NCBI GenBank assembly: GCA_041649135.1
Contig: JBAZNQ010000001.1
Coordinates: forward strand, 99,037 to 163,036
Direction: 5' to 3'
Source of the DNA: Patescibacteria group bacterium
Lineage (GTDB): Bacteria; Patescibacteriota; Kazan-3B-28
Length of the DNA: 64,000 nucleotides
Position numbers and translations under genes: made by a program. Numbering within the stretch: the stretch's first letter is position 1; each line of letters starts with the position of its first letter. Shown one piece after another: positions 5,423 through 55,917 of the stretch. The notes under the pieces were generated by a model, which saw only the letters and a program-made list of their open reading frames with translations, ran no database searches and was not told where the DNA came from.

Positions 5423-6376
5423 GTGGAAAACAAAAATCAAATCCCACAAACCATTTTTAGTATTATTCTCACTACCGCCAAGACAGCCGTCTTGGTTTTG
5501 TTAGTATTGTTCACAGTTTCCAGCCCACGTCAGGCCTTGGCTGGTAACGCCTTGCTGGGTCAGGAGTCGGCCATTATTACCCAAACCAACGCCATCCGAG
5601 CGGAAGCTGGTCTGCCAGCTTTGACATTTGAGGCTCGTCTAGCCCGATCAGCTGCTGCCAAAGCCAATGATATGGCTACCAAGGGCTACTTTGATCACGG
5701 TAATCCTGACGGCTATCGGATGTCCTATTGGATTAACAACACCGGCTATACCTATACCTTGGCTGGCGAAAACCTCGCCAAAGGATTTTCTAGTGTTACT
5801 CGACTAATGAATGCTTGGGTAGCCAGCCCTTCTCATTATAAGAATCTAGTTGAGCCACAGTTTACCGATATTGGCATCGGCATGGCTGAAGGTTGGTATG
5901 ACGGTCAATCCACTCTGTTTGTTGTCCAACATTTTGGAGCCGAAGCCGCTCCACTAATAAAGGATGTGAGCCAGTTTGTCTCCGGAGTAACTGCTATGGT
6001 TGCTCCCTTGGTTGAGACCGTAGCTGGCACCACCGAGGGGCAAACGATCGTTAATAATTCCACCCCACTAGTTTCTCCTACTGTTGTCAAACCAGTTCAG
6101 ACGTCGATCGCCAACAGCGCTATAACCAATTCATCTCCAACTCTCCATTTTCTGCCGTCCATCAGTCTTTTACCCCAACCTGCCCAAGCCGGAACCGTGA
6201 CGCCTTGGGTTAATTCCACCGATCAGGCTCCCATTTGTCCGAATATGGCTTGGGCGATCTTGGTGATGTTGATAGTCGCTATCCTTGCTTATTTTGTTGA
6301 TTTCAAGCTGATTGTGCTAATTCGAGACCGGTTGGCAAAAATTGCTTCCAAAACCATTTCCACCCAGCCAAAATAA
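5423..6376 (+). CDS. Secreted CAP-domain (SCP/PR-1/YkwD-like) protein with C-terminal TM anchor
   Basis: Signal peptide, CAP motifs (GYFDHGNPDG, GENLAKGF, HYKNLVEPQFTDIGIG), then a low-complexity linker and a C-terminal hydrophobic helix. Confidence 0.75.
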   Translation: MENKNQIPQTIFSIILTTAKTAVLVLLVLFTVSSPRQALAGNALLGQESAIITQTNAIRAEAGLPALTFEARLARSAAAKANDMATKGYFDHGNPDGYRMSYWINNTGYTYTLAGENLAKGFSSVTRLMNAWVASPSHYKNLVEPQFTDIGIGMAEGWYDGQSTLFVVQHFGAEAAPLIKDVSQFVSGVTAMVAPLVETVAGTTEGQTIVNNSTPLVSPTVVKPVQTSIANSAITNSSPTLHFLPSISLLPQPAQAGTVTPWVNSTDQAPICPNMAWAILVMLIVAILAYFVDFKLIVLIRDRLAKIASKTISTQPK

Positions 6377-6406: not shown

Positions 6407-6440
6407 TTTGTCTCTCTGCCCCACGCTGGGCAGACTTTTT
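6407..6440 (+). terminator. Terminator after CAP-domain gene
   Basis: tctgcccc-acgc-tgggcaga + cttttt. Confidence 0.55.
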
Positions 6441-6629: not shown

Positions 6630-9600
6630 TTGCTAAATACACATACAGTCATGAGTAAATTGAAACAGGTAGCCACTCTTTTTTACTGGGTGACAGCTTT
6701 TGGCTTAGCGTTAGCGCCAATGCTAACCGCCACTCCAGCTTGGGCCACATATATTGATCCAACTGGCGGTCAACCAAGTGATATCGGCCCAGTGTGTAGT
6801 CCCGCTGTGGATTTGATCTCTAACGGCAGTTTCGAAGTGCCGGTAGTTGATAATGATTCCAACTGGGACATTTTCCCAAGCGACCCCAACAATGATTTAG
6901 GGAGTAACTTGTGGTGGGGCGCGGAATGGGTAGCCCCCGGCGAAGGTGCACCTAATTTTGCCAATCTTGAATTACAGAAAGCCCCGCTCAACGGCTGGTC
7001 TGCTCAAGCCGGCGATCAATGGGCAGAATTGGATACTGACTATGACGGCCCCGGTGGCAGCATCGGTGGCGAAGCCGCTTCCATCCGTCTGACCCAGAAT
7101 ATTAAAAACACCAAGGGAGGCTGTTATTATAATTTGGAATTTTATACTTTGCCTCGCCCCGGTTACGGTCCAGAAGATAATACTATCGAAGTCAGCTGGA
7201 ACGGTGTCGTAATCGATACAATTACTACAGATGGTTCGTCTCTTACTCAACCAGATTGGGCTTATCACCAATATACTGTTCAGGCCGATGATTTAACCGC
7301 CGATCTTTCCTTTACCGACATTGGCATTCCCAATTCCTTTGGGATGCTACTAGATAATGTTCAAATTCACTGCATCGAAGAAAAAACGACGATCGTTGCT
7401 CACAAAATTGTCTGTGATTCAGAAGAAGATTTGCCTAACTGGGGTATCGGTGGCGAACCAATTACTGCTACTACCGCCCAAGATTTTGTTACTTCCCGCC
7501 AAGGTAGATGTCATTTTCAGGCAGGCTGGCAGTTCCAATGGGCGCCAGAAGGTACTTCAAATCCCGGAGACACCATGATCGGAGAAGCGGGTGGTTGGAA
7601 CACCCTTCCCGCAACTGACGGAGATGGCAAGACAACGATTACTCTTACTGCCACCGACATTGCTGGTAGTAGCTATCTTTGGTTCCGTGAAGCCTTACTG
7701 GAAAACTATGTTCCGTTTAGTAGCTGGCTGTCTGATGGTTCGAACACTCCAAGTGCCGATGATGAATTTTCCGCTGAAGTTTATGCCACTACTGATGTAT
7801 TAAACTATGACAACTACGATCGGATCGAAGATGTTGAAAACGGTGGCATCAAGTTAGGTCAAACTTACTACGCCGTTGCGTTTAATGTTCTGGCCGAGCC
7901 AGAAGAAGATCCGTGTGATTTCGGCGAGCAGACCGGTTGGTTCGGCCAATACTATGATTACACCGCCAACCATCAGGACATGAACTTGCCGACTGGCGTC
8001 TGGCCAGACAAAACTCACGGTGATCCGTTGAGCAAGACTGCTACTTGGACGGCCGATTGGTATGATTCTGACTACTTTGTCAGAAGCCAAGTTGATCCTA
8101 GTCTTAATTTTGGGAACGATTTCTTCCCATTGGATAGTCCTGTACTCGTTGAAGACCCTGCTGGGAGCGGTCACAACTATCACTTCGGTGCGCATTGGAG
8201 CGGAAAGGTTACTGTTGGTACAGAAGGGGATTACAACTTTGCTCTCAAATCGGATGACGATGCTTGGGTTTATCTTGATGGCGAATTAATCAAAGACAAC
8301 TCTGGCATTCATCAGCCACAAGAGAATAATGGTTCGGCGCACATGACGGTCGGCACTCACATTGTCGATATCTTCTTCGCAGAACGGCATACGGTCCAGT
8401 CTTACATGGCATTTGCCTTTGAAAACCAAGACTTGCTGATTGTTCCATACAACGACGAGTGTCCCGTTCCAGTCCCGACCCTTTCGATCGATAAGACTGG
8501 CGTTTACGATCAGGCTGGTCAAATTGATTACACCATTACTTGGAGTGTTGAGGGTGAAGGCACACTCCATAACGTTACTATTACTGATGCTATTCCAGCT
8601 GGTACGACGTATGTGCCTAGTGATCCATCCGGTATCCCTGCCGCTGGAGTAGTAACTTGGATCTTGGGTGATAAAACCGCTCCAGATTCGGGTACCATTC
8701 ATCTAATTGTTTCAATCGATTCTTACGAACCATGGGCGGACAGTCACAGCGACTTTACCCAAGGTTTGCGCAAAGATAATACTCCAGTAGTTGAAGAAAG
8801 AAGCCACCCCGATAAAGCTCTGGGCGTAGCCGAAAACAATGACACAATTAATTTTGTTTCACTCGGCTTCGGCGGTAGTTTGGTGCTTCATTTCAACAAC
8901 TACATCTTAGACGGCGCTGGTGCTGATATCGCCGTTACCGAAACTAGCTATGGCGAGCCATCTGACACCAACTATCCGGAAAAAGTGGAAGTGTTTGCTT
9001 CCCAAACTGGTAATGGCACAGACTGGGTATCGCTTGGTAGGGGGATCCAAGACCAAGACTTCGATCTCAATGGCAGCGGTTTGGCTTGGGCTAGATATCT
9101 GAAATTGGTTGATGTCTCCAACAAGGCTGACGCTCATTTCCCAGCCGATGCCGATGGTTACGACATTGATGGGGTAGCGGCCTTACACTACGCGCCTGCC
9201 GAATGTTCAATTGATAATACCGTTCAAATGAGCGGCGATCCAGCATCAGATGATGTTCCGAAGATCGCTATGGTAGCAGTAGTTGATGACGGTCTAGTCC
9301 ACGCCAGCGATACCACTACTACCACTATTAGTGATATCTGTAATCCTCCCATCCCCGATGACCCAGAGGATACTCACACTCTGATTAGTGGAATGAAGTT
9401 CAACGACCATGATGGTGATGGTGATAAAGATGAAAATGATGGGGGACTGGCCGAATGGAAAATTTATGCCGCCCAATTAGCTGCTAGCTTTGAAGTCGAT
9501 TCACACGGCGATATTACTGGTACGCCAGTTGATTCACCAATTCTTGAGAACGGTGTGGAATATCTGATTCGTGTAAGCGATACCTTTAACGCTGGTGACT

Positions 9601-10658
9601 CCATTACCGCCGATGCTAAATATTCCATTCGCACCGGTAGTGAGTGGACTGATATAGTTGAAAACTACGTTGGATATGGTCCAGCCTTGCTTGATCTGCA
9701 GTTGGATGGCACATCTCCGAACTGGGGTAGTTACAGCCCAGCCCATATTTATTGGTATGCCATGACTGGTACAGGAGCGGCTGTTACATTCCAAATCTAT
9801 GACATTTTTGCTTCCAACAATGTTGGCACACTCGATGTCTCCCTGTATCGTGTCTTGGATTTCACTCTGACTGACGGAACTGGCAATTATTCATTTGATC
9901 TACTCAACGTCGAGGGTGATGTCATTATTGCCGAACAAAATCAAACTGGTTGGACCCAAACCGCTCCCGCTCCGGTTGACTACTATACTGTTCCATCTGG
10001 TGGAGAAGCTAGTAACCAAGATTTTGGTAACTACCAAATTCCAGCAGAGCCACGTCTTGGTTCGATCACTGGTATCAAATTCGAGGATCATGACGGTGAT
10101 GGCGTAAAAGACGGTAGTGATGATCAACCATTAGCCGGTTGGACTATCTACCTTGATGCCAATGACAATGGCAGTCTTGATAGCGGCGAATTGTCTGATG
10201 TAACTGATGATGCTGGTGTCTTTAGCTTCCCCAACCTCTCGGCTGGTACCTACATTGTTCGTGAAGTTTACCAAGATGGTTGGACCAAAACCTTCCCGAG
10301 TGCCTCGGCTTACAGCTTGATCATTGGAGATGGAGAGGGTAACGACTGGGATTGGATCGAGATCGATTTTGGTAACCATGAAGGCGTTGTCGACTCACAG
10401 GGCACAACTCCAACTGGTAGTTCAGGCAGTAGCAGCGGATATTACACTCCAGCGCCAACTCCTGATCCTGACGACGGAGATGTACTGGGCGAGCAAACTG
10501 GGAGCAACGGTAGTGGTAGCGGCGCTAGTGATGAAGCTGTCGGTGGCGAACAAACCCTGCCTGTTACTGGTACATCGCCATGGGTCATACCGGTAATGTT
10601 ACTATTAGCTCTTGCCGTACTACTAGTCGAATCTCGTTGGTCAAAACGTACAAATTAA
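6630..10658 (+). CDS. Giant LPXTG-anchored cell-surface protein (PA14 + DUF11 + SdrD-B/Cna-B-like repeats)
   Basis: Signal peptide. PA14-like segment (GDYNFALKSDDDAWVYLDGELI). DUF11-like (TLSIDKTGVYDQAGQIDYTITWSVEG...VTITDAIPAGTTYV). Two SdrD-B-like repeats (GxKFxDHDGDGxKD...LAGWxIY...G.Y.V.E). The C-terminus is LPVTG + hydrophobic stretch + SRWSKRTN, a classic sortase sorting signal. Confidence 0.85.
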   Translation: MLNTHTVMSKLKQVATLFYWVTAFGLALAPMLTATPAWATYIDPTGGQPSDIGPVCSPAVDLISNGSFEVPVVDNDSNWDIFPSDPNNDLGSNLWWGAEWVAPGEGAPNFANLELQKAPLNGWSAQAGDQWAELDTDYDGPGGSIGGEAASIRLTQNIKNTKGGCYYNLEFYTLPRPGYGPEDNTIEVSWNGVVIDTITTDGSSLTQPDWAYHQYTVQADDLTADLSFTDIGIPNSFGMLLDNVQIHCIEEKTTIVAHKIVCDSEEDLPNWGIGGEPITATTAQDFVTSRQGRCHFQAGWQFQWAPEGTSNPGDTMIGEAGGWNTLPATDGDGKTTITLTATDIAGSSYLWFREALLENYVPFSSWLSDGSNTPSADDEFSAEVYATTDVLNYDNYDRIEDVENGGIKLGQTYYAVAFNVLAEPEEDPCDFGEQTGWFGQYYDYTANHQDMNLPTGVWPDKTHGDPLSKTATWTADWYDSDYFVRSQVDPSLNFGNDFFPLDSPVLVEDPAGSGHNYHFGAHWSGKVTVGTEGDYNFALKSDDDAWVYLDGELIKDNSGIHQPQENNGSAHMTVGTHIVDIFFAERHTVQSYMAFAFENQDLLIVPYNDECPVPVPTLSIDKTGVYDQAGQIDYTITWSVEGEGTLHNVTITDAIPAGTTYVPSDPSGIPAAGVVTWILGDKTAPDSGTIHLIVSIDSYEPWADSHSDFTQGLRKDNTPVVEERSHPDKALGVAENNDTINFVSLGFGGSLVLHFNNYILDGAGADIAVTETSYGEPSDTNYPEKVEVFASQTGNGTDWVSLGRGIQDQDFDLNGSGLAWARYLKLVDVSNKADAHFPADADGYDIDGVAALHYAPAECSIDNTVQMSGDPASDDVPKIAMVAVVDDGLVHASDTTTTTISDICNPPIPDDPEDTHTLISGMKFNDHDGDGDKDENDGGLAEWKIYAAQLAASFEVDSHGDITGTPVDSPILENGVEYLIRVSDTFNAGDSITADAKYSIRTGSEWTDIVENYVGYGPALLDLQLDGTSPNWGSYSPAHIYWYAMTGTGAAVTFQIYDIFASNNVGTLDVSLYRVLDFTLTDGTGNYSFDLLNVEGDVIIAEQNQTGWTQTAPAPVDYYTVPSGGEASNQDFGNYQIPAEPRLGSITGIKFEDHDGDGVKDGSDDQPLAGWTIYLDANDNGSLDSGELSDVTDDAGVFSFPNLSAGTYIVREVYQDGWTKTFPSASAYSLIIGDGEGNDWDWIEIDFGNHEGVVDSQGTTPTGSSGSSSGYYTPAPTPDPDDGDVLGEQTGSNGSGSGASDEAVGGEQTLPVTGTSPWVIPVMLLLALAVLLVESRWSKRTN

Positions 10659-11123: not shown

Positions 11124-12206
11124 ATGTCTATGGATTTATCACCCAAACGCCGCATCATCACCCTAGATCTCCTGCGCGGTTATTTTCTGTGGGTAATTTT
11201 AGTTGACCACATCTACCGGTTCCCCGGTTTCTTTGAGATTTTCACCGGCAAAGGATTACTTTGGGCGTCGGCCGCCGATGGTTTCTTCTTGGAATCCGGT
11301 GTCTTAGTCGGATATTTGCGGGGGCGGGAAACCCGCACTGGTAATTTTGGATTAGCGTGGAAACGACTTTGGCTTCGGGCGCTCGTGCTATATGCGTGGT
11401 CGATCGGACTGACTTTATTATTTACTTTGCTGGCCTACTGGTTGCCAAATTACGTCGGTATTAAATCTGGTTTCGCTGACGATCTATCGACGTTACAATT
11501 GCTTTGGCAAACTCTGACTTTTCAATATTCCTATGGTTGGACGGACTTTTTGCCTTATTACACGATGTACATGGTTTTTGCTCCACTCGCTCTTTGGTTG
11601 ATGAACAAACGTCAAACTTGGTTGGTGCTATTTACCTCACTTATCATTTGGTTATTTCGAGGACACAATCCATTCTTGGCATGGCAAGCGTTATTTTTTA
11701 TCGGTCTGACTGGCGGTTATTATTTTCCGGAATGGGAACAATTTTGGCATCGGTTATCTCTTACCGCCCAGCGGTGGGTGCGTTGGTCGAGTGTTAGTTT
11801 AGCGTTGGTAATTTTAGTGACCAATTTATGGATTAAACATTTTTACGGTTATGAAGGTGGTTGGTTAACTCACTGGTTTGACAAATGGACGCTTGCTCCC
11901 GGCCACTTGATCGTCGGTATAATTTGGTTCATCGGTTTATATTTGTTGGTTCGAGGCATAGAACCGATCGTTGCCAAAATTACCGGCTGGTTACTTTTAC
12001 CGGCTGGTCGCAATTCGCTGGCGACTTACATTTTTGAAAGCTTTGTAGTGGTGGGTGTCAATTTGTTGCTACCGTATCCCAGCACTAGTTTTTGGGTTAA
12101 TACCGCTATCAATCTCTCTGCTATTACTGTTGTCTGGCTCTTTACTTACTTCTATGATCGCCGGCGAACTGCCCGTCGTCTGACTAGTTCTCCGATCGCT
12201 ACTTAG
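11124..12206 (+). CDS. Polytopic membrane protein, acyltransferase-3/DUF1624-like
   Basis: ITLDLLRGYFLWVILVDH N-terminal motif typical of acyltransferase family 3; about 10 TM helices. Confidence 0.4.
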   Translation: MSMDLSPKRRIITLDLLRGYFLWVILVDHIYRFPGFFEIFTGKGLLWASAADGFFLESGVLVGYLRGRETRTGNFGLAWKRLWLRALVLYAWSIGLTLLFTLLAYWLPNYVGIKSGFADDLSTLQLLWQTLTFQYSYGWTDFLPYYTMYMVFAPLALWLMNKRQTWLVLFTSLIIWLFRGHNPFLAWQALFFIGLTGGYYFPEWEQFWHRLSLTAQRWVRWSSVSLALVILVTNLWIKHFYGYEGGWLTHWFDKWTLAPGHLIVGIIWFIGLYLLVRGIEPIVAKITGWLLLPAGRNSLATYIFESFVVVGVNLLLPYPSTSFWVNTAINLSAITVVWLFTYFYDRRRTARRLTSSPIAT

Positions 12207-12252
12207 CGTCTGATAGTTACTTTTACCAAAGGTAGTTTTTGCCGTATGATGA

Positions 12253-13116
12253 ATGCAGTCACAACCTATGGTAACTGATTGGTGGAGTATTTTTATTAGT
12301 CATCTGACCGGTGGTCTCGTCCAGATGAGTGAAACAGCCGGTTTATTCTGGTCGGGTTTAATTAGTCAATTTTCACTTACCGGATTGCTCGACTTAATTT
12401 TAGTGGCCGCGTTACTCTGGTGGCTTTATCGCCGGTTGCGTCGTAGTGAATTGATCGGTATCTTACCGCGGATTTTCATTTTATTAATTATTATTTTAGT
12501 AGCGCGTATCTTGGGATTTTGGGCGCTCTTTTATGTTGGCGGAGCTTTGTTTATTATCACTCTGTTAGCGCTCTCCGCCTTGTACGCGCCGGAGATCAAG
12601 CAAGTTCTGATTACCGATTTAAAACTTGACCATCATCCACGTGCCACTATCCGTAATGTTAGTACCGCCGATTATCAAACCGCTATCAAGACACTAGTTG
12701 AGGCGCTCGCCGTGCTGACTCGCGCTCACAAGCCGGCTTTAATTGTCATTAAACGAGACAAACCCCTCACTCGGTTAGTTGATAATGGCACCAAGATGAA
12801 TTCGCCTCTACGCGCCGATTTGCTAATTGATTTTTTTGCTAATGGTTCAGTTTTGGGTAAGGGTGCCGCTATCATTGATGGCAACAAAATTATCGGGGCT
12901 GGTTCTACGCTCTTTCGGACCAATGCCCGCATCTTATTTAATCCCACCCATCCCATGATCCAGCGTGCCGCTCGCGAACTTAATGCCGTCATTATCATTG
13001 CCACCAAAACCACTAGCGATATCAACGTTGTGGCAGGGGATAACACTTACAAAAATCTCAATTTGGCCGATCTTTCCAAACTTCTGCAGAACATATTGGT
13101 TTATCGTCGGATTTAA
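12253..13116 (+). CDS. Diadenylate cyclase CdaA-like membrane protein (DAC domain; catalytic motifs appear divergent)
   Basis: Three N-terminal TM helices with LLDLILVAALLWWLYRRLRRSELIG (CdaA-like), then a DAC-like region GKGAAIIDGNKIIGAGSTLF ... IQRAARELNAVIIIATKTTSDINVV. The canonical DGA and RHR appear as DGN and IQR. A ybbR/cdaR-like gene follows immediately. Confidence 0.5.
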   Translation: MQSQPMVTDWWSIFISHLTGGLVQMSETAGLFWSGLISQFSLTGLLDLILVAALLWWLYRRLRRSELIGILPRIFILLIIILVARILGFWALFYVGGALFIITLLALSALYAPEIKQVLITDLKLDHHPRATIRNVSTADYQTAIKTLVEALAVLTRAHKPALIVIKRDKPLTRLVDNGTKMNSPLRADLLIDFFANGSVLGKGAAIIDGNKIIGAGSTLFRTNARILFNPTHPMIQRAARELNAVIIIATKTTSDINVVAGDNTYKNLNLADLSKLLQNILVYRRI

Positions 13117-14313
13117 ATGCGTCTCAATTCTCCCAATATCATGCGCTGGGTAATCCTGATCGCCGCCGTTTTGGTTTGGATCAACATTTACTCATTTCTC
13201 GATCGCACTACGACCATTTCCGCTCCGCTTTTGATCGAAAATCTTCGAAGTGATTTTGCGATTGCCGAACCAATTACGGTTGTTAATGCTACTGTGAGCG
13301 GCGGAATTCGCGATTTTGCCAGTCTGACTGATCAGACTTTTCAATTTACGATCGACGCCTCATCCATTGCCGCTATCGGTCAATACACTCTCGAAATTAA
13401 ACCCAAATTAGTGCCCAAATCGGTCAAAGTGGTTGCGATCGAGCCTCAACAACTGACCGCGACGATCGAATTGGTTGCCAGCAAAATTGTTCCGGTGTCG
13501 GCTCTCTCTCGCGGTATGACTAATGACAAATATAGTGTCTACTCACTAACTGCTGTGCCAAGTCAGGTCCAAGTTTTTGGAGCGCCGTCATTGTTGGCGC
13601 AAATCTCGGAAGCTCGCACTTATGCAGATGTTTCTCGTCGCAAAAATTCCTTCACCGCTCCGGCTTCGGTTGCGGTTGAAGATGCCAATAACCACGTTAT
13701 TCATTCACTCCGAGTTGAACCTAGTAATGTCAAAATCACCGTCGAGATCATCGCTGGGGCTGGGATTCGCAATCTTGGTTTAAAACCATCTTTTATCGGT
13801 GAATTACCGGGTGGTTTTTGGGTCAAAGAAGTAAAATTCGATCCTTCGGTTGTCCAAGTGCGTGGTCCTCAACAGATTTTAGAAGCTCTCTCATCGCTCT
13901 CATCAACGGCTATTAATTTGTCCGACCATCGTAGCGACTTTAACGAACAAGTGGCTGTCGATCTGCCGAGTGGTATCGAAATCGTTGGCGACAACTTGAT
14001 CATGGCACAAATCTTGGTCGGCTCTAGCGAGGGTACTCGTCAATTGGAAATCGTGCCCCAGTATGTTAATGTAACCGAAGGTTTCAGCATTACCGCCACC
14101 AATCCTGCTAGCATCCAAGTTGTGGTTTCTGGCGACCCTAAAGCTGTTAATCAGCTCACTCGCCAAGATATTAAACTAAACCTCGATTTAAAAGGCACTC
14201 TGTCTGGCGCCAATCAAATTGTCCTAACGCCGGCGATGTTCTCCGCCCCTCCCAACATTCAGATCGTTTCCTTCACTCCCGACAAAGTCGAAATCGTCCT
14301 GACGAGACTCTAA
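13117..14313 (+). CDS. YbbR-like (CdaR) domain membrane-anchored protein
   Basis: N-terminal TM, then repeated beta-rich YbbR-like segments; start abuts the cdaA-like stop (TAA-ATG). Confidence 0.55.
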   Translation: MRLNSPNIMRWVILIAAVLVWINIYSFLDRTTTISAPLLIENLRSDFAIAEPITVVNATVSGGIRDFASLTDQTFQFTIDASSIAAIGQYTLEIKPKLVPKSVKVVAIEPQQLTATIELVASKIVPVSALSRGMTNDKYSVYSLTAVPSQVQVFGAPSLLAQISEARTYADVSRRKNSFTAPASVAVEDANNHVIHSLRVEPSNVKITVEIIAGAGIRNLGLKPSFIGELPGGFWVKEVKFDPSVVQVRGPQQILEALSSLSSTAINLSDHRSDFNEQVAVDLPSGIEIVGDNLIMAQILVGSSEGTRQLEIVPQYVNVTEGFSITATNPASIQVVVSGDPKAVNQLTRQDIKLNLDLKGTLSGANQIVLTPAMFSAPPNIQIVSFTPDKVEIVLTRL

Positions 14314-20202: not shown

Positions 20203-20745
20203 ATGGCCACCAAAACAGAAGAAGAGACAGTAGTAGTGGAGTGGGGGTTGGTGACTGGGTCACCAACCACCATTAAGCCCCGCATATTCGTGCGGGTGGC
20301 GAGCAACGGGAAGTCAGGGTTGTCGTCTCATTTTAGCGACGGAAGTCGTCCGACCCCCCCATCGGATTTGGGGAAGCGCCTCGAGCGCGTCGCGCGCGAG
20401 GTGCGAGGCCTTGGCCTCGGCGCCGAGGTCGTCGACGGCAAGGTTGTTGTCGACGGGCTGGTGTATCACAACACCATCCCCAACGGCCAAACGTTGGGGG
20501 TGGACGCTAGCGGACGACCCTACCTGACCGCCAACTCTCCCATAGTGGGAGAGCTGGCAGGACGGTTACTGCCGCCCTGCTCCGAGTGGGTAGAGCTAGG
20601 GGAAATTAGAGGAGCCTACTACGGCTCCGACGGTATGAGCATTGGCCAGCCCTTGCTACACACGGTCACCCTCTCCAACGGGGAGAGGGTATTGTTGGCT
20701 ATAGGAGGGGATATGGCCGACCTGACCATCTTCCCCCTTCCATAG
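20203..20745 (+). CDS. Hypothetical protein, strongly GC-rich (about 62%)
   Basis: Strong SD gggaggtggcgt-ATG; codon usage and GC differ sharply from the core genes. Confidence 0.5.
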   Translation: MATKTEEETVVVEWGLVTGSPTTIKPRIFVRVASNGKSGLSSHFSDGSRPTPPSDLGKRLERVAREVRGLGLGAEVVDGKVVVDGLVYHNTIPNGQTLGVDASGRPYLTANSPIVGELAGRLLPPCSEWVELGEIRGAYYGSDGMSIGQPLLHTVTLSNGERVLLAIGGDMADLTIFPLP

Positions 20746-21047
20746 CCTTTCCCTTTTCCCCGCGAGCATATGAGCCGCTCGCGCACCAAATCAAGCCGAA
20801 GCCGTGGCGGCCAAGTAGTCCACGGCGCTGGAGAAATCCAATGAAGCTGAACCTTTGGCCCCCTCTGCTCTTTCAAACAGAGGGGGCAGGGCACCTATGC
20901 CCAGAACTTCACCGCTGACAGGAAAAGCGTCAAGTGAAGAATAGGTGGGTGGCTCCCGTAACAGCCATTCCTCGTAAACTGTGTAGTTTGCCTGATGAGT
21001 CCAAAAGGACGAAAGGAATATATATAAAATAATTTAATAAAAATATT

Positions 21048-22094
21048 ATGAGTAATCAAGATTTGAATCCAGAACAAAATCGAGGCGAAATCGGGACTTC
21101 ATCTATTCAGTCAGAAGTTGACGGTACAATGGAAGTTACCCCAGAAGCCAAGGCTAACGATCCCGAAATTCAGCCCAAAATTGAAGGAAGTTTTGTGGTG
21201 CTTGATCCTCGTCCTCAAAGCTTAGACGCCATGATTGCATTAGTGTCTGCTACTCCAACTCTAGGTATCGAACTGACCGTCCCCGAAATTGCTAAACATT
21301 GTGTCGGCAATATTGACCCCCAACATAGTGAAGGGAAAAACATTTCTGCAATTGAAGCAGTCTCCAGCCCAGATTTTGAAATTCCTACTCCCGAAGTCCA
21401 ACTTGCAACAGTTCGGGCCGATAATGATGCTATCGGAGCTATGGCAGTCATTGGTTTGCGTCGAATTGGTGTCGAGCTTTCTGATGAAACTATGGTGCGG
21501 ATTGCCCGCATTGCTACCGGCGATAAAGCCAGAACCGGCAAATGGCAACCCGAAACCCGTTCCTTTGACGATCGTGATTGGGATTATGTCGGATTAGCTC
21601 GAATAGTGGCTGATTTTAAAAAGCCAGTTGCCGAACGTGTCCAACTAATGGCCGATTGGCTAATGACTGGCACTTGCGAAGGTAGTGACACTGCCATCGA
21701 CATCGTCAAACTTGAGTTGGCCGAAGCCATCGCTAAAACCGATGTTTGGGTGGAAGGGAGCGTTGCCCAAGTTAACGGTGAACATCGCGGGGCTATGGCC
21801 ATAGGCTACGAACAGGCTCCCGTTGTCATCGCCGCAAATCCCAACTTTAAAATTGCGGGTGGTGAACCTCATCTGAAATACACAGTCGGTCAGTGGAGTG
21901 CTGGCTATGCCGATCTTAAATCAGTGCTAGTAGAACTTCAGGCCCTAGAACCAGGTTGGGGCGGTAGCGACACCATTATTGGCTCTCCTCAAGGCGAATC
22001 TAGCCAACTCACAATGGAGCAGATTCTAGAAATAGTCGCTAAACACACAACCTTCGACGAATATAGATCAGAAGAAGACCAGATCATACTCTGA
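21048..22094 (+). CDS. Hypothetical protein (348 aa)
   Basis: Long ORF after an AT-rich promoter region; no recognisable motifs by eye. Confidence 0.45.
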   Translation: MSNQDLNPEQNRGEIGTSSIQSEVDGTMEVTPEAKANDPEIQPKIEGSFVVLDPRPQSLDAMIALVSATPTLGIELTVPEIAKHCVGNIDPQHSEGKNISAIEAVSSPDFEIPTPEVQLATVRADNDAIGAMAVIGLRRIGVELSDETMVRIARIATGDKARTGKWQPETRSFDDRDWDYVGLARIVADFKKPVAERVQLMADWLMTGTCEGSDTAIDIVKLELAEAIAKTDVWVEGSVAQVNGEHRGAMAIGYEQAPVVIAANPNFKIAGGEPHLKYTVGQWSAGYADLKSVLVELQALEPGWGGSDTIIGSPQGESSQLTMEQILEIVAKHTTFDEYRSEEDQIIL

Positions 22095-22190
22095 CTAACA
22101 CGCCGTCTCTCCGATCGAGAGGTTCGGGATATTAAAGCTGGGTCAAAGATTCTCGGAGTACGTGGCATCTCATGGAAAGAGCTACATAGG

Positions 22191-22781
22191 TTGCTACTTG
22201 AGGGGAAAGTGAACCGGGATACTGCAGAGTTTGCGGTCATTCAAGAGGAAGAAAAGCTGAAAGATACCCATCCCGAACCACCTGCCGGTACAATTGCTCT
22301 CTTTGATGGTAGTGAATTTGTTGACTGTGATAATGCCGTTTCTCTGCGACATCGGTTGGCAAACCGATTCGGAGAACTGGTAGTAGAATTTATACTTTCA
22401 CCGGACGACATCTCTCGCAGCCAGGGTATATATACCTTCAGGGATAGTTGGGGGCTAGATCCTAAATACACAGAAGTAGAGCCGGAGGTTTATGCGAGAG
22501 AGACGAAAGCAGTCGGAATAAGAGGTATATATGCCAGTTATAACGACATACCCCTTTCACCCGAGACTCTAGTAGAACAGTTGTTAGAATTCGTAGATGT
22601 TGGTCTAGATAAAGAAATATTAAAACATTCTGGTAGAGAAATATTGTCCTTGTTGCACTCGATGTGGTGGAATAAGGACATCACGCCCGAAGAATTCTAT
22701 GACTTATATGAATTCTTATCAGGTAAAGCAGAAGAAATAATTCGGCGTTCGGGTGGCTGCAAGCTAGACGAGCCCAAGTAG
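22191..22781 (+). CDS. Hypothetical protein (196 aa)
   Basis: ORF follows the previous gene on the same strand; the true start may be internal. Confidence 0.4.
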   Translation: MLLEGKVNRDTAEFAVIQEEEKLKDTHPEPPAGTIALFDGSEFVDCDNAVSLRHRLANRFGELVVEFILSPDDISRSQGIYTFRDSWGLDPKYTEVEPEVYARETKAVGIRGIYASYNDIPLSPETLVEQLLEFVDVGLDKEILKHSGREILSLLHSMWWNKDITPEEFYDLYEFLSGKAEEIIRRSGGCKLDEPK

Positions 22782-43784: not shown

Positions 43785-44582
43785 ATGTACACCTTACCCA
43801 ATCAACCACAACCTAATTGGTTCCAGCCGACTATGCCACCAGTTCGTTACCGCCGGCGAAATTGGTTTATTGAAGTATTGAAATTTTTGGGTTTGTTTAT
43901 TTTCTTTTTTGCTGGTCTCGTGCTGATCGTGATGGGCCCAACCTATTATGCTAAACTGGCGTATCTCTGGACCAAACCAACTAATAACTATTCACAAAAA
44001 TATGAATTGCCAGTTTCAGTAACCGACGATCCAGCGGCAATTGGAGATTTGACCGACCAAGTCAGTAAAAGTAAATCTGCCTTTGGTCAAGATACTATTG
44101 TGATCCCTAAAATCAACGTCGATGCGCCGCTACTTTATTTAGAAACTACGAACAACACAGACATTATCGAAGCCATTCAGAACGGTGTCGGTCATTATCA
44201 GGGGACCGCTCTCCCCGGTCAAAATGGCAATGTTTTCTTAACTGGTCACAGCTCTTATTACTGGTGGTCGGGCGGCAAATACAATCAAGTTTTTGCCTTA
44301 CTCAACAAACTCGAAGCAGGGGATTTGATCTACCTCTACTATCAGGGCAACAAATATATTTATCGAGTTAGCCAGAGCTTTGTTGTTAAACCAGAGCAAG
44401 TCGAAGTCCTGCAGGCCACTACTGAACCAATTTTAACTCTCATGACTTGCACTCCAGTTGGCACCAATCTTAAGCGTCTGATTGTTCGGGCAGACTTAAT
44501 TAGCCAACCACCAGTTAGTGGTAGTGACTTTTCTAACCTATTCAATTTGCCCAAGCCGCCAACCATCCTGCCGCTGTACTAG
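43785..44582 (+). CDS. Sortase (transpeptidase, membrane-anchored)
   Basis: N-terminal TM, LTGHSSYYW (His), LTLMTCTP (TLxTC Cys), RLIVRAD (Arg); start at the ATG 43785 directly after the ttcaccattcaccattcacctt motif (ORF from 43710). Confidence 0.8.
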   Translation: MYTLPNQPQPNWFQPTMPPVRYRRRNWFIEVLKFLGLFIFFFAGLVLIVMGPTYYAKLAYLWTKPTNNYSQKYELPVSVTDDPAAIGDLTDQVSKSKSAFGQDTIVIPKINVDAPLLYLETTNNTDIIEAIQNGVGHYQGTALPGQNGNVFLTGHSSYYWWSGGKYNQVFALLNKLEAGDLIYLYYQGNKYIYRVSQSFVVKPEQVEVLQATTEPILTLMTCTPVGTNLKRLIVRADLISQPPVSGSDFSNLFNLPKPPTILPLY

Positions 44583-44716: not shown

Positions 44717-46147
44717 CTAGATACTGACTGTACTAGATACTAGATACTGTCCAAGCCCGCCAAAGATATTGGAATCATTCTGACGCAAAATTAGTTCAAC
44801 CAATTTGTTGGCTTTTAACAGCCAGATTTTTTTCGCATCACTTCCAAGGTAAACTGTAGTTTTGTTAACATCAGCTACTGTATAAACATTTGTTCCGCTA
44901 ACGTCGCTAACGTTAAGTTGATTATTAGTAGTTAAAAACAAGCTTTCATCTTGTTTGCCTAGCAATTCAACTGCGGCGGGGAAATTTTTTAGTGTCATTT
45001 CAGTTTGATTAACGAAATTATGGCTCATTAAATTCCGACCAACCGTATAAAACAATCTTGGTTTCAAATTATGATGTTCGTAGTAAACGTCACCGATATT
45101 GCTAGCTACTTTTGTCCAAATCGGAACTTCGTTTTTTCCAACAACAGTTTTATCCCACAACCACAACCCCGCTGTGCTGTTTTTAGCCGTTACGATAATT
45201 CTCTCGTCATTCACAAAGACGATTTCGTAGCTTTTTCCGACCGGCAAATCGTTAGTTACCGCTTCTCCCGCTTTGTCATCAAACAAATTACTGTCTCGCA
45301 TCAGCGAAATACTTCCGTTACTGTTACGAATAATGTAGTACAACCGACTATTACTATAAGACGCCCCTAAAATATTTTTAGCGTAAAGGTTTATTCGGTT
45401 GAGATTCAGATCAACTGCATATACTGTCGTCCCCATTACTGCCATTAGTCGATCATTGTCTAACCAGCTTAATTTTTCTGCCGTTGCTTGATTCAGGGGG
45501 CTACCAAATAACTGCCCTCGATAACCTTCTTGAAAATCGGCTACCACTAACCATTTTCTTCCCCCTGAAATCACTCCCAACGCCCAAGTATTGCCATCCG
45601 ACTTTTTGGCCAAATACACGTCAGTCGTTGCCTGCAACACACTTTTTACATTGGCTGGTAATCGGCTAAAGTCCAGCGGCGTCGCTGTACCGTTAGCGTA
45701 TTTGATAAATTTTCGGTCTTTCGAAAAATATAATAAATCGTTTCCCACGCTAATTACTCGCTGGGCATCCTCTACCAAAATTTGACTCGGAATATCGGTC
45801 AGCACCAAATCCAAGTTGTGTTCTTCTACCACTTGTCTTGATGCCACGTCTATGGTTTTAAAAAACGGCCGATAATCCTTCAGCTCCAATTTGATATTAT
45901 ATGCCCCCGGCAGAACATTGCGCATTGTAATTGGGGTCAGCCGGGAGGTTTTATGATCATTAATGTATACCGTTGCTCCGCTTGGTTTACTGCTGATTGC
46001 CAACACACCAGTCTTCTGGATCGTCCAAGTCGCCAAATCCAGCCGATAGCCGGTCGCGTATCCTATGGCATAGACTGCCACCACGATGAAAACCAACGTG
46101 GACAGCACATAAGCCAGCAGTGTCGGCCAATTTTTCTGATAGGTCAT
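44717..46147 (-). CDS. Membrane-anchored PEGA-domain protein with beta-rich C-terminal region
   Basis: N-terminal TM; PEGA-like SSKPSGATVYINDHKTSRLTPITMRNVLPGAYNIKLELKDYRPF. Confidence 0.55.
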   Translation of the reverse strand: MTYQKNWPTLLAYVLSTLVFIVVAVYAIGYATGYRLDLATWTIQKTGVLAISSKPSGATVYINDHKTSRLTPITMRNVLPGAYNIKLELKDYRPFFKTIDVASRQVVEEHNLDLVLTDIPSQILVEDAQRVISVGNDLLYFSKDRKFIKYANGTATPLDFSRLPANVKSVLQATTDVYLAKKSDGNTWALGVISGGRKWLVVADFQEGYRGQLFGSPLNQATAEKLSWLDNDRLMAVMGTTVYAVDLNLNRINLYAKNILGASYSNSRLYYIIRNSNGSISLMRDSNLFDDKAGEAVTNDLPVGKSYEIVFVNDERIIVTAKNSTAGLWLWDKTVVGKNEVPIWTKVASNIGDVYYEHHNLKPRLFYTVGRNLMSHNFVNQTEMTLKNFPAAVELLGKQDESLFLTTNNQLNVSDVSGTNVYTVADVNKTTVYLGSDAKKIWLLKANKLVELILRQNDSNIFGGLGQYLVSSTVSI

Positions 46148-46305: not shown

Positions 46306-47430
46306 ATGTCATTTTCAAGCACAAAAACCACATCCGACGATCTTGTCCAACCTTCCAACGGGATGAAGATCGGGATTGATGCTACTGCTCTGACCCACCT
46401 CCAACCAACTGGTGTTGAAGTCGCTACTCGAGAACTGATTCGGGCACTTTTGACGTTAGATCAGACAAACCAGTACTATCTTTACACTCCCACCCCTCTG
46501 GATCGGTCTTGGCAGATGTTCGCCAATGTCTCCAATCGGGTTTTACCACCAACTCGTCGATGGCTCTTATCTCAACTCGGTCCCGCTATTCACCAAGATC
46601 GATTGGATCTTTTTTGGTCACCCAGCAATCTATTGCCTTTTAAACTGCCTGCCAGACGTCTTGCTACTGTCCATGATTTGGCGTTTTTCCACTTTCCCCA
46701 AGCTTATTCGTGGCGCAGTTGGTTAATGTCATGGTTAACGGTTTGGCGAGCGACTAAATTAGCCACCAAAATTATTGCTGTCAGCCATCACACTAAACAG
46801 GATTTAATTCAAAAATTTCATTTGCCAGACCATCGCGTAGTAGTTGTCCCTAATGCCTTGCCGCAATCTCCAACGGTTACTGTCACCCCATTAATTTTAG
46901 ATGACTATATTTTGGTAGTTGGTCGGGTGGAAACACGCAAAAATCCTCTCGCCGCCATCAAAGCTTTTGCCTTAATTGCCGCTGATTATCCCAAACTCCA
47001 ACTAATTTTTGCTGGCGGTGATGGTTTGGGAGCTACGTCAGCCAAACAATTAGCTGACACTCTCGGATTATCGCATCGAATTCAGTTTTTGGGTTTTGTT
47101 GATGGAGAAACCTTGGCCAACTTGTATGCCCATGCTCGCATCGCTCTCTTCCCAACACTTTATGAGGGTTTCGGTCTGCCAGTACTGGAAGCCTTCCAAT
47201 ATGGAGTTCCTTTGGTTGCCTCTGATACTCCAGCCGTTGCTGAAGTGGCTGGTGATGCCGCTCTATTAGTCGAACCAACTGATACTTTGGCGATTGGTCG
47301 TGCTTTGATTAGACTGTTAGAAGAACCAGAATTAAGAACCACCTTAATTGAAAAGGGGACTTTGCGTCTACGCCAATATTCATGGGAACGATCAGCCGAA
47401 GAACTGTTGGCAGTAATTAACTCCTTGTAA
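46306..47430 (+). CDS. Glycosyltransferase family 4 (GT-B)
   Basis: EGFGLPVLEAFQYGVPLVASD EX7E-type motif. Confidence 0.8.
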   Translation: MSFSSTKTTSDDLVQPSNGMKIGIDATALTHLQPTGVEVATRELIRALLTLDQTNQYYLYTPTPLDRSWQMFANVSNRVLPPTRRWLLSQLGPAIHQDRLDLFWSPSNLLPFKLPARRLATVHDLAFFHFPQAYSWRSWLMSWLTVWRATKLATKIIAVSHHTKQDLIQKFHLPDHRVVVVPNALPQSPTVTVTPLILDDYILVVGRVETRKNPLAAIKAFALIAADYPKLQLIFAGGDGLGATSAKQLADTLGLSHRIQFLGFVDGETLANLYAHARIALFPTLYEGFGLPVLEAFQYGVPLVASDTPAVAEVAGDAALLVEPTDTLAIGRALIRLLEEPELRTTLIEKGTLRLRQYSWERSAEELLAVINSL

Positions 47431-47504
47431 TATTTATTTGTCTAGTCATCCGCCAGCTAATGAATCCTTTCTCTCTTCTGCCATCCCACGTCCTTCCTTT
47501 TTGT

Positions 47505-47605
47505 CATCCTGAACTTGATTCAGGATCCAGCCAGAAACAACAAACAAAACTCTTTTTCTTTTCTTGTCTAGATTCCGGGTCAAGCCCGGAATGACAAAAT
47601 AAATA
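47505..47605. repeat. Full-length MITE-like element (gtcatcctgaac...ccggaatgac variant)
   Basis: ttgtcatcctgaacttgattcaggatccagccagaaacaac...cttgtctagattccgggtcaagcccggaatgacaaa. Confidence 0.75.
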
Positions 47606-47658
47606 ACCACGCCGAAGACGCCACCAAAACTGTTCACCTTTAACGATTAACTTGTCTT

Positions 47659-48816
47659 ATGTCTAATCCAAAAATTGCCATCGTTCACGACTTCCTCCAA
47701 TCCTTCGGTGGTGCCGAAAGAGTTACTTTGGCGATCAGCGATCTTTATCCCGATGCGCCGATCTATTCTTTGACTTACGATATCAAGCTCAATCCTTGGT
47801 TCGGTAAAAGAAAAATCCTCACGTCCTATTTGCAAAAATGGAGCTGGGTTCCGGCTAAATTTTTAATCCCGTTTTATGCTCAAGCGATTGAGAGTTTTGA
47901 TTTTAATGATTTTGACGTAGTTATTTCTAGTTCTCATTCATTCGCGAAAAATATTCTTACCAATCCGGACACAATTCACATTTCCTATATTCATTCGCCG
48001 ATGCGTTACGTTTGGGATGCGTGGCACTCTTATTTAGCTGGTCAGCGAGTTAGTCGTTTGAATGGGATTTTAGGAGTAGGGTTAGTCCGCAATACTGTTG
48101 TCAATATTCTGCACCATTTGCGACTTTGGGATCGGCTGGGTGCATCGCGGGTAGACCAATTTGTGGCTAATTCCCACTACGTGGCGGATCGTATCCGCAA
48201 ATTTTATCGTCGGGAATCAATTGTTATTTACCCACCAGTTGATACTGATAAAATTCAAATTTCTCACGAGCATAAAAATTACTTCATCGCCATTGCTCGC
48301 TTAAGCCAGTACAAGCGACTAGATTTAGTCGTCCAAGCTTGTAATGAATTAAATCTGCCATTAATAGTTATCGGTACTGGTGAAATGGAAGCCGAATTAA
48401 AAAAACTAGCTGGGCCGACAGTCACTATTACTGGCTGGATCAGCGACGAACAAAAGATTAAATATATTGAAAGTGCTCGCGCCCTAATTTTCCCTGCCGA
48501 AGAAGATTTTGGAATTGTACCGGTGGAAATTCAAGCGGCTGGTAAACCAGTGATAGCCTTTGGCAAAGGCGGCTGTTTGGAAACTGTAATTGATGGCGAA
48601 ACCGGCATCTTTTTCCCTGAACAGACGGTAGAAAGTCTTAAATTAGCTATCCAAAAATTTATTCAAATCGAGTCGACTTTCGATCCAGCTACCATTTCCC
48701 AGCACGCTCAACAATTTTCTCGTCAACGTTTCCAAACTGAACTTAGAAAACTAGTTGAAGAAAAATTAGCAGAGCATAGTTTTCGTCATCCTCTGGCTTG
48801 CGTCAGTCCTCCGTAG
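47659..48816 (+). CDS. Glycosyltransferase family 4 (GT-B)
   Basis: EEDFGIVPVEIQAAGKPVIAFGKGGCLETV. Confidence 0.8.
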   Translation: MSNPKIAIVHDFLQSFGGAERVTLAISDLYPDAPIYSLTYDIKLNPWFGKRKILTSYLQKWSWVPAKFLIPFYAQAIESFDFNDFDVVISSSHSFAKNILTNPDTIHISYIHSPMRYVWDAWHSYLAGQRVSRLNGILGVGLVRNTVVNILHHLRLWDRLGASRVDQFVANSHYVADRIRKFYRRESIVIYPPVDTDKIQISHEHKNYFIAIARLSQYKRLDLVVQACNELNLPLIVIGTGEMEAELKKLAGPTVTITGWISDEQKIKYIESARALIFPAEEDFGIVPVEIQAAGKPVIAFGKGGCLETVIDGETGIFFPEQTVESLKLAIQKFIQIESTFDPATISQHAQQFSRQRFQTELRKLVEEKLAEHSFRHPLACVSPP

Positions 48817-48867
48817 CTCAACGAGCGAAGGATGGAACCAGAGGATCCAGTCCCACCCTTTGTTATT

Positions 48868-49040
48868 CTCGGACTTGATCCGAGAATCCAGAAAAGAACA
48901 GAAAAAATGTTTTTGTTTCTGGCTGGATTCCCCAATCAAGTTGGGAAATGACAACAGAAACTTAAGAATAACCAAAAGTCCACCGTCATTCTGGTAAGGT
49001 CGACGCAGCGACCGCATCCAGAATCGTATAAGTGACGATG
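48868..49040. repeat. Two adjacent MITE-like elements
   Basis: ctcggacttgatccgagaatccagaaaagaacagaaaaaatgtttttgtttctggctggattcccc...gggaaatgac followed by gtcattctggtaaggtcgacgcagcgaccgcatccagaatcgtat. Confidence 0.75.
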
Positions 49041-49094
49041 TACACCATTCCTCATTTTCTCTGGCTTGTGTCAGTCATGTGTAGCTTGTCAGAG

Positions 49095-49260
49095 CGCAAT
49101 GGTCATCCTCGAGCTGAGTGCCGTAGGCAACTCGACGTCGGGGACCCAGACAGAAACAGCCAACAAAAACTTTTTCTTTTTTGTCTGGATTCCCGCCTAC
49201 CTGCCCGAAGTGCTACACCGTTGCAGGCGGGCGCGGGAATGACGAAGAGGAGGGCTCATA
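49095..49260. repeat. MITE-like element (gtcatcctcgag...gggaatgac variant)
   Basis: cgtcatcctcgagctgagtgccgtaggcaactcgacgtcggggacccagacagaaacag...ttgtctggattcccgcctacc...gcgggaatgacg. Confidence 0.75.
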
Positions 49261-49277
49261 ATGACAAAATATTAACT

Positions 49278-55407: not shown

Positions 55408-55917
55408 TTATCGCGTCGAGACACGATAGTATAGTTTGAATGGGAAGGCATTACCTTCCACGTCCAACGCTTGCCATTCGATTTTAAGAACCGACGGCAA
55501 ACTGGTTGCGCTGTCGACCTTCAACTTCCAGAAATTGATATCTGGATGAGAGTAGGTCTGATCCTGCCAAACACTTACCAGCGTGGCTGAAGTGTTGATA
55601 ACCAAACCGCCCGAAGACAATTGTTCTGCATGGTGAATGTAGGCCAAAGGAGTTCCTTCAGCTTTTGGAACAGGTAAAACATAGGTCGTACCTGTCACAA
55701 CCACTGATCCTCCGTCAACCCATGTTTCTGTCGCCCAGAGACTAGTTTCAGCGGGGATAACCCGTGACGAGCCATCGTAACCGAAATAAAGTTCCCTGGC
55801 CACCATGTTGATAGGGTCCGGTGGGTCAGGATTGTTGACAACTGAGTTACTATCACAGCCACTGGCTACTAGCAATATTGTCATTGCTAAAGCCAAAACG
55901 GCTTGTCCAAGTCGCAA
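55408..55917 (-). CDS. Lipoprotein, hypothetical (GC-rich island gene)
   Basis: Lipobox LLVASGC; 169 aa; co-directional with and upstream of the 493-aa lipoprotein gene. Confidence 0.5.
   Translation of the reverse strand: MRLGQAVLALAMTILLVASGCDSNSVVNNPDPPDPINMVARELYFGYDGSSRVIPAETSLWATETWVDGGSVVVTGTTYVLPVPKAEGTPLAYIHHAEQLSSGGLVINTSATLVSVWQDQTYSHPDINFWKLKVDSATSLPSVLKIEWQALDVEGNAFPFKLYYRVSTR

Follow-up and report, generated by a model that had tools for sequence, protein, structure and literature searches.

Most Patescibacteria have not been cultured, and a life in attachment to host cells is assumed for them. To our knowledge, little has been described, beyond type IV pili, of what mediates their contact with a host. 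The closest described counterparts of the protein considered here are the MSCRAMM/Sdr-family LPXTG adhesins, exemplified by S. aureus SdrD and Cna. These proteins combine a signal peptide, an N-terminal ligand-binding region, CnaB-type Ca-binding B-repeats and a wall-spanning linker with a C-terminal LPXTG motif that is followed by a hydrophobic segment and a basic tail, and they are served by a membrane sortase. We analysed a stretch of 64,000 nucleotides (positions 99,037 to 163,036 of contig JBAZNQ010000001.1; hereafter the 64-kb window) from a Kazan-like Patescibacterium, which encodes an adhesin-like surface protein (6651..10658) and a sortase (43785..44582). Coordinates are positions in the window, and features lie on the forward (+) strand unless marked (-). 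The adhesin resembles the MSCRAMM/Sdr proteins in each of the respects just listed. Unlike them, it has neither a DEv-IgG A-domain nor an SD-repeat region, its binding modules are of the lectin type, it has only two B-repeats, one of which is split, its tail is missed by the anchor hidden Markov models (HMMs), and its bearer is an ultra-small Patescibacterium. We propose, with a probability of about 0.7, that it is a Sec-exported, wall-anchored, glycan-binding multi-lectin protein of the fibrillar-adhesin type.

Two further groups of described proteins are close to parts of the adhesin. The PA14/fibro-slime adhesins comprise the yeast flocculins and Epa proteins, the ice-binding adhesin MpIBP and the fibro-slime proteins of Fibrobacter. 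The PA14 domain found here is like theirs, with an SDDDAWVYLDG core, and is likewise part of a large, Ca-rich, non-enzymatic surface protein, but it sits inside the protein instead of at its tip, between two other lectin-type modules. Costa et al. 2025 (PMC12617251) renamed DUF11 CLIPPER and showed by crystallography that fibrillar adhesins carry it as a CnaA-like isopeptide stalk domain; the adhesin has one such domain above the Pfam cut-off. Sortases of the candidate phyla radiation (CPR) are already documented, LPXTG, PA14, DUF11 and SdrD_B are annotated in CPR genomes, and both genes treated here carry automatic annotations in public records.

The adhesin gene is the largest open reading frame (ORF) of the window and encodes 1335 residues from ATG 6651 to the TAA stop codon at 10656-10658; residues are numbered from this start throughout. 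An earlier note on this DNA, made from the sequence alone, had described a 1342-residue ORF at 6630..10658, which is indeed intact from an alternative TTG start at 6630. We favour ATG 6651, the start chosen by the gene callers and found in an identical deposited protein of 1335 residues. Assemblies in NCBI, JGI, ENA and Logan all contain exactly this protein, on contigs that measure 420-521 kb. The earlier note's word "giant" is an overstatement, since homologues range from about 800 to 3300 residues. The protein is extremely acidic (net charge about -157, Asp 10.5%), which fits the role of a surface protein predicted to bind Ca.

The C-terminus carries what the earlier note had seen there, a tripartite cell-wall sorting signal (10557..10655) that can be read directly. 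LPVTG (10557-10571) is immediately followed by a hydrophobic segment of 19 residues, TSPWVIPVMLLLALAVLLV (10572-10628), and by the basic tail ESRWSKRTN (10629-10655). In a pattern scan of all six frames, LPVTG is the sole credible sorting signal in the window. Motif, transmembrane segment and basic tail are all kept in the orthologues P0010 and P0011. The latter (55% identity) lies on JGI contig Ga0315284_10000090, about 24 kb from an orthologue of the sortase (P0129, 67% identity) and in the same order as here. Its surroundings consist of a CAP-domain gene immediately upstream and DAC/YbbR/RNase_T/PheS genes downstream, and P0129 is again followed by PEGA, GT4, GT4 and WecG genes (GT4, glycosyltransferase family 4). 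Because synteny is kept in this relative, adhesin and sortase are conserved core genes of this lineage and no islet. The occurrence of adhesin and sortase orthologues on the same contigs and in the same order in relatives counts for the sortase-adhesin model. A further case is the homologue P0005, which ends in LPGAG and is encoded on the same 150,751-bp contig as the sortase orthologue P0211; this co-location supports sortase dependence where a motif is present. Among named genomes, those with the closest relatives of the sortase are two, candidate division Kazan bacterium GW2011_GWA1_50_15 (complete, 602,646 bp; 63% identity) and a metagenome-assembled genome with a 560,194-bp chromosome (67% identity). 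Since these Kazan-group relatives have 0.56-0.60 Mb, the 4-kb adhesin gene would take up about 0.7% of the genome.

Housekeeping sortases of classes A, D and E share their fold, the His/Cys/Arg triad and an N-terminal membrane anchor with the enzyme encoded at 43785..44582, and the genes for those of classes A and E are likewise dispersed from the genes of their substrates. The sortase has 265 residues, a length that agrees with its homologues and with the gene callers, and an N-terminal transmembrane segment at 43866-43946. It is matched by PF04203 with 105.7 bits (cut-off 26.6) and by TIGR01076 with 71.9 (cut-off 39.35). On alignment to solved sortases, the catalytic positions are occupied by His155 (in TGHSS, 44247-44249), Cys222 (in MTCTP, 44448-44450) and Arg235 (in RLIVRA, 44487-44489), and these motifs are conserved across 80 homologues. 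The sortase with intact catalytic motifs that the earlier note had placed 33 kb away is therefore real, the distance from adhesin stop (10658) to sortase start (43785) being 33.1 kb.

Among the class-specific NCBIfam models, in a comparison in which no class A model is listed, the sortase reaches 90.7 bits for class C (cut-off 160), 77.8 for the LPxTATN-specific SrtD (cut-off 140), 76.8 for class E (cut-off 160), 66.6 for class D (cut-off 165) and 36.3 for class F (cut-off 166). The NCBI label "class D sortase" is not reproduced with current models. The nearest solved enzymes by sequence are of class C (E 4e-16 to 1e-15). Class C pilin polymerases are thus the closest by sequence, yet the family to which this sortase belongs has a single N-terminal transmembrane segment, without a conserved DP[FWY] lid and without a C-terminal transmembrane segment. 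Moreover, no protein with a sorting signal is encoded within ±10 kb of the sortase in seven relatives (L008-L014) or at the two places where P0129 is found (L006, L007). Given the lack of lid, C-terminal transmembrane segment and neighbouring substrates, we read the sortase as housekeeping-type and not as a pilin polymerase. It looks like a housekeeping-type enzyme of a Patescibacteria-specific clade that fits no curated class and that differs from the named classes in a conserved C-terminal tail. This tail (P..P.iLPl; residues 241-265, 44507-44579) is Pro-rich, follows the catalytic domain and is not a transmembrane segment. Convergent with the sortase gene lies a gene for a PEGA-domain membrane protein (44717-46147, (-)), and genes for GT4 and WecG/TagA-type transferases follow at 46306-50150 (+). 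The conserved neighbours of the sortase are the PEGA membrane protein, three GT4 glycosyltransferases and the WecG/TagA-type transferase, in an arrangement that is kept in relatives. They suggest an envelope-biogenesis cluster, with the sortase embedded among genes for a wall glycopolymer.

Between the signal peptide and the sorting signal, modules of the lectin type alternate with modules of the stalk type. The predicted Sec signal peptide (residues 1-32, MSKLKQ...TPAWA; 6651..6746) shows, by direct reading, a basic n-region, a hydrophobic core and a c-region with an AxA site, with cleavage expected after AWA and before TY. A β-sandwich resembling DUF642 and the choice-of-anchor-C domain follows (residues ~50-242; 6798..7376). 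It is recognized through sub-threshold matches (DUF642 E 0.006; TIGR04362 31 bits, cut-off 120); many homologues carry a PF04862 annotation, and this N-terminal region is common to 78 of 120 matches. We regard it as a putative glycan-binding module. Residues 243-425 form an unannotated domain, module A, which is described below. The PA14 core (residues 505-583, envelope ~430-603; 8163..8399) is matched by PF07691 with 47.8 bits (cut-off 24, E 1.8e-12, profile positions 39-125 of 147), and the related fibro-slime model TIGR02148 gives 35 bits, under its cut-off. The DUF11/CLIPPER domain, a CnaA-like stalk domain (residues 618-690; 8502..8720), is a partial match to PF01345 (28.9 bits, cut-off 24.6, profile positions 12-85 of 114) and to TIGR01451 (29.6, cut-off 24). 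By direct reading, LSIDK and VTITD are spaced K+31, compared with K+33 in the solved structure 9IFR, and the Asn-bearing last strand lies outside the profile match.

Module B (residues 695-870; 8733..9260) is identified by its fold as a galactose-binding-like β-sandwich of the superfamily that holds F5/8 type C, carbohydrate-binding module (CBM) family 32 and SUN domains. Its AlphaFold2 (AF2) model has a predicted local distance difference test (pLDDT) score of 90.3. Foldseek returns 26 matches at E<=1e-3, with probability 1.0 and template-modelling (TM) scores of about 0.5, among them a CBM32 bound to GalNAc (4uap, target-normalized TM score, TMt, 0.58), CBM32-5 of CpGH89, the CBM32 of EndoD and SUN domains; some of the matched CBM32 structures are bound to GalNAc or Gal. 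In the PDB profile search, CBM32 is found at E 0.04-0.3, and 16 of 25 module B homologues match F5_F8_type_C (PF00754) weakly, at best with E 7.9e-5.

Two SdrD-B-like repeats complete the stalk. Repeat 2 (residues 1142-1218; 10074..10304) is of CnaB type, carries DHDGDGVKD and DANDNG Ca-type motifs, and is matched by SdrD_B (PF17210; 31.9 bits, cut-off 29.7) and SpaA (25.3, cut-off 23.1) of Pfam. Repeat 1 (residues 911-939 and 1073-1125; 9381..10025) carries DHDGDGDKD and is sub-threshold in Pfam (E 0.085); it is split by a 133-residue insert (residues 940-1072; 9468..9866), and when repeat 2 is searched by BLAST against this region, two high-scoring segment pairs are obtained, one on each side of the insert. 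Ca-type Dx[DN]x[DN]G motifs start at residues 919, 1146 and 1169. The unannotated insert is conserved in about 25 homologues, where it has no Pfam match either, and it may be a fourth binding module. A low-complexity Gly/Ser/Thr/Pro linker (residues 1236-1302; 10356..10556) leads to the sorting signal. It contains VLGEQ (residues 1277-1281; 10479-10493) and VGGEQ (residues 1297-1301; 10539-10553) just upstream of that signal. This (V/A)(L/G)GEQ motif, present twice here, is found again upstream of the anchors of homologues, varied as these are, and may be a processing or recognition element. The PA14, DUF11 and SdrD_B domains announced by the earlier note are all recovered by HMM above the Pfam cut-offs, and its DxDGDG B-repeats exist, though there are only two and the first is split by about 133 residues. 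Its domain list missed about half of the architecture, namely the DUF642-like module, modules A and B and the repeat-1 insert. In the coverage map of 120 homologues, the most widely shared regions are not PA14, DUF11 or SdrD_B. With three lectin-type modules set among modules of the stalk type and an anchor at the C-terminus, the protein follows the scheme of fibrillar adhesins, in which adhesive, stalk and sorting parts are combined (PMC12617251).

Module A (7377..7925) was examined by AF2/Foldseek, conservation and direct coupling analysis (DCA). None of the 33 members of its alignment has a Pfam match there, and a PDB sequence/profile search gave no match. When 1.84 billion cluster representatives were searched with its profile, a sharply bounded family emerged, in which 1,074 proteins reached E<=1e-3 and 929 of them E<=1e-30. 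These proteins, of ~500-3300 residues, carry one to four copies and, by source names, belong to Patescibacteria and to Micrarchaeota, Woesearchaeota and Burarchaeum metagenome-assembled genomes. For the AF2 model of module A (pLDDT 86.9), the best PDB matches, all of them weak, come exclusively from pilins that are assembled by sortases, where they are N-terminal or shaft domains (RrgB D1, EbpC, EbpB, BcpA, Spy0128).

In CnaB-type domains, an isopeptide bond joins a Lys on strand A to an Asn of G, the last strand, strand E bears a catalytic Glu, and A and G lie side by side in parallel orientation (PMC3132780). Conservation in module A points to a putative triad of K252 (7404-7406), E347 (7689-7691) and N412 (7884-7886). 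These residues are positions 10, 105 and 170 of the domain and fall on the first (4-13), an internal (101-105) and the last (163-172) strand of the model. The triad is present in 351 of 361 unique instances, and Lys is also replaced in 6 of the 7 cases in which Glu is replaced. Mean-field DCA (effective number of sequences, Meff, 333; 15,931 pairs ranked) places pair 7-163 second, 7-165 fourth, 11-169 28th and 10-168 67th, which corresponds to a parallel A-G register, and pair K10-E105 ninth. The top pair, 137-166, is Cys-Cys in 349 of 361 instances. Here both positions are Ala (A379, A408), so this second disulfide has gone as a whole; the Cys pair C255-C287 is retained. Comparison by hhalign of module A with the protein's own SdrD_B repeat aligns 12 columns (probability 9.6%), "WFREVLxxGY" to "YIVREVYQDGW", at the E-box position and nowhere else, a similarity that is suggestive, though no proof, of homology between the two. 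No signal was obtained with hhalign against the protein's own DUF11, PA14 or N-terminal module. Module A thus shares with the CnaB pilin domains of RrgB, Spy0128 and BcpA a first-strand Lys, a last-strand Asn, a Glu in an E-box-like "REVLxxGY" strand and the parallel A-G register. It differs from CnaB and CLIPPER domains in that it belongs to no Pfam isopeptide family, is larger (~180 residues), has a helical insert and has one or two disulfides.

Module A is probably a divergent CnaB-like stalk domain, beyond current Pfam families, that is predicted to be locked by an isopeptide bond. It lies outside every Pfam isopeptide family of the 2025 global survey. A wider claim, for which we would give slightly less than even odds, is that it founds an undescribed self-crosslinking Lys-Asn CnaB-like family of ~1,000 clusters at 50% identity, confined by source names to ultra-small Patescibacteria and DPANN-type archaea, in whose surface proteins it occurs in one to four copies.

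These elements suggest the following mechanism. The signal peptide (residues 1-32) would direct the adhesin to Sec export, and the C-terminal hydrophobic segment and basic tail would keep the precursor in the membrane. The membrane-bound sortase encoded at 43785-44582 would cleave between Thr and Gly of LPVTG by means of Cys222, His155 and Arg235; a candidate peptide substrate containing LPVTG is GEQTLPVTGTSP. As in housekeeping sortases, and provided that the two proteins are indeed partners, the enzyme would then transfer the Thr carboxyl to an amine of a peptidoglycan precursor. The Gly/Ser/Pro linker would cross the wall, and the stalk modules (two SdrD-B-like CnaB repeats presumed to bind Ca, DUF11/CLIPPER and module A) would push the binding modules outward. 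In module A, a K252-N412 isopeptide bond, with E347 catalysing its formation, would probably lock the domain. Finally, the DUF642-like, PA14 and CBM32-like modules may bind glycans, most plausibly on a host cell surface or in a matrix.

Several observations weigh against this mechanism. Concerning the anchor, the earlier note had set beforehand that failure of domain HMMs to recover it would count against its proposal, and neither Gram_pos_anchor of Pfam nor the LPXTG anchor model of NCBIfam matches the full protein or its isolated 41- and 62-residue tails (E<=10). The call of a sorting signal consequently rests on the pattern and on its conservation in orthologues. A strict LPxT[GASN] motif is present in 17 of 120 homologues. 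At the same position, others among the closer homologues have LPAAG or LPGAG (P0003, P0005, P0017), LAAAG (P0014, P0018) and LVAAG or LVSAG (P0019, P0021, P0022), L[PAV]x[AS]G variants that suggest a lineage-specific drift in sortase specificity. Many close homologues (e.g. P0002, P0004, P0006-P0008, P0013) end in a plain transmembrane anchor and basic tail without any motif. Given these variant and motif-less endings, membrane anchoring alone is viable in the family. The C-terminus could then be a membrane tail anchor only, with LPVTG left unprocessed and the sortase acting on substrates encoded elsewhere in the genome; the pairing of adhesin and sortase is, after all, presumed. We consider this unlikely. 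LPVTG stands exactly at the canonical position, right before the transmembrane segment, it is retained, despite divergent linkers, in orthologues whose contigs carry the orthologous sortase, and no other sorting-signal candidate was found in the neighbourhood of a conserved sortase. Nor does the failure of the anchor HMMs refute wall anchoring, since the tripartite signal is canonical by inspection and conserved in orthologues. Concerning the enzyme, the sortase is below every class-specific NCBIfam cut-off compared, and its best NCBIfam (90.7 bits) and PDB (E 4e-16 to 1e-15) matches are of class C. The best structural matches of module A are N-terminal domains of shaft or basal pilins (RrgB, EbpC, EbpB, BcpA), although these matches are themselves weak (E no better than 2e-3, probability at most 0.97, query-normalized TM score, TMq, 0.31-0.39 for the top ones). 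Both features would suit a pilus built by a sortase, in which the adhesin would be the tip or an accessory subunit and a class C-type polymerase would join its LPVTG Thr to a Lys of a shaft pilin instead of to peptidoglycan. However, the class C score is far under its cut-off of 160, and the enzyme has no DP[FWY] lid and no C-terminal transmembrane segment. The window contains no second LPXTG protein or shaft pilin, no LPXTG or pilin neighbour occurs within ±10 kb of the sortase in the relatives and P0129 places listed above, adhesin and sortase lie outside any islet, and no YPKN-type pilin motif is seen by direct reading. A pilus islet with a class C enzyme was rejected as the main explanation for want of lid, C-terminal transmembrane segment and neighbouring LPXTG or pilin genes, and a pilus of any such kind is very improbable.

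Other points weigh against the wall and the binding role. No Mur or penicillin-binding protein genes lie within the 64-kb window, and the inspected DNA, ~64 kb plus short flanks of a ~0.55 Mb genome, bounds the negatives on sortases and substrates. The window encodes an alanine racemase, and a sortase family is present in more than half of CPR genomes, for which a Gram-positive-like envelope has been predicted (Méheust et al. 2019, PMC6744442); a peptidoglycan wall in this organism is likely. Of the binding modules, the DUF642-like one is under the Pfam thresholds in this protein, and module B has no Pfam match in it at E<=1. Even a wall-anchored adhesin might serve no host contact, capturing polysaccharide, binding matrix or biofilm, or structuring the organism's own envelope through non-catalytic CBM-like modules. 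The three binding-type modules do come from superfamilies best known as CBMs on glycosidases or in cell-wall proteins, no host is known for the lineage, and the neighbours of the gene, in a core region that is conserved, are housekeeping and envelope genes. We think such a role doubtful, though well above the two possibilities weighed before. The protein has no catalytic domain and has the architecture of fibrillar adhesins, and the use of ~0.7% of a 0.55-0.6 Mb genome for one conserved surface protein suggests a central role in lifestyle. Moreover, cultivated Patescibacteria are described as obligate episymbionts (PMC11623550). That the target of the adhesin is specifically a host cell, as the domain families might indicate, we put forward tentatively, at clearly less than even odds. 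The wall-anchored multi-lectin adhesin remains the reading that we prefer.

The C-termini of family members vary further. A recurrent tail beginning VPYGAPGTGHGG… and, in many members, PG_binding_1 domains are found among the endings of homologues. At least 15 proteins with module A, including P0035, P0038, P0039, P0043, P0046, P0056, P0065 and P0066, share the C-terminal tail VLGEQVS(A/V)VPYGAP(G/N)TGHGG…, which is followed by a hydrophobic stretch and R(K/R). This tail looks like a distinct, undescribed sorting signal of (A/S)PxTG type.

Directly upstream of the adhesin lies a gene for an exported CAP/SCP-domain protein (5423..6376), an adjacency that is kept in a relative. A terminator scan detects a terminator-like hairpin at 6415-6434, 3' of the CAP gene, and the adhesin is on this account probably its own transcription unit; the promoter and terminator scan of the window gave counts no higher than the shuffled expectation. 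Directly 3' of the adhesin, 11124-14313 (+) encodes, in this order, a membrane acyltransferase of Acyl_transf_3/OpgC type, a diadenylate cyclase (DAC) and a YbbR-domain protein, the last two being a CdaA/CdaR-like pair as in Firmicutes. In a relative (L004/L005), a gene of the bAvd/23S_rRNA_IVP family (7409-7780) lies upstream of the CAP-adhesin pair, at a distance of ~2 kb. Diversity-generating retroelements have bAvd as their accessory protein. Near this bAvd-like gene no reverse transcriptase was seen, and in the window neither bAvd nor a reverse transcriptase is near the adhesin; a link to such retroelements was dropped. Further away, 20203-22781 (+) holds three successive ORFs of 180, 348 and 196 residues without Pfam match, where the GC content is locally high (0.518). 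Two putative lipoproteins encoded side by side (493 and 169 residues; 53894-55375 (-) and 55408-55917 (-)) have lipobox-like VVSC and ASGC motifs after a signal sequence and no Pfam match on record. As their local GC content is 0.526 compared with ~0.45 for the window, they may have been acquired horizontally.

The adhesin-sortase finding does not overturn current views. Beyond existing annotation, a smaller addition is a sortase clade that appears from sequence comparison to lie outside all curated classes. The larger one is module A, a candidate new isopeptide family absent from the list of a recent AlphaFold-DB-based survey. If this assignment is true, autocatalytic isopeptide chemistry would extend to the two main episymbiotic radiations, an exchange of modules between them would be indicated, and module A would supply a new scaffold of the Tag/Catcher type. 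The sortase and its substrate would form a pair that offers a route into how Patescibacteria decorate their wall. Finally, a conserved and syntenic multi-lectin protein provides a concrete candidate attachment factor for Patescibacteria, with three binding modules that can be tested.

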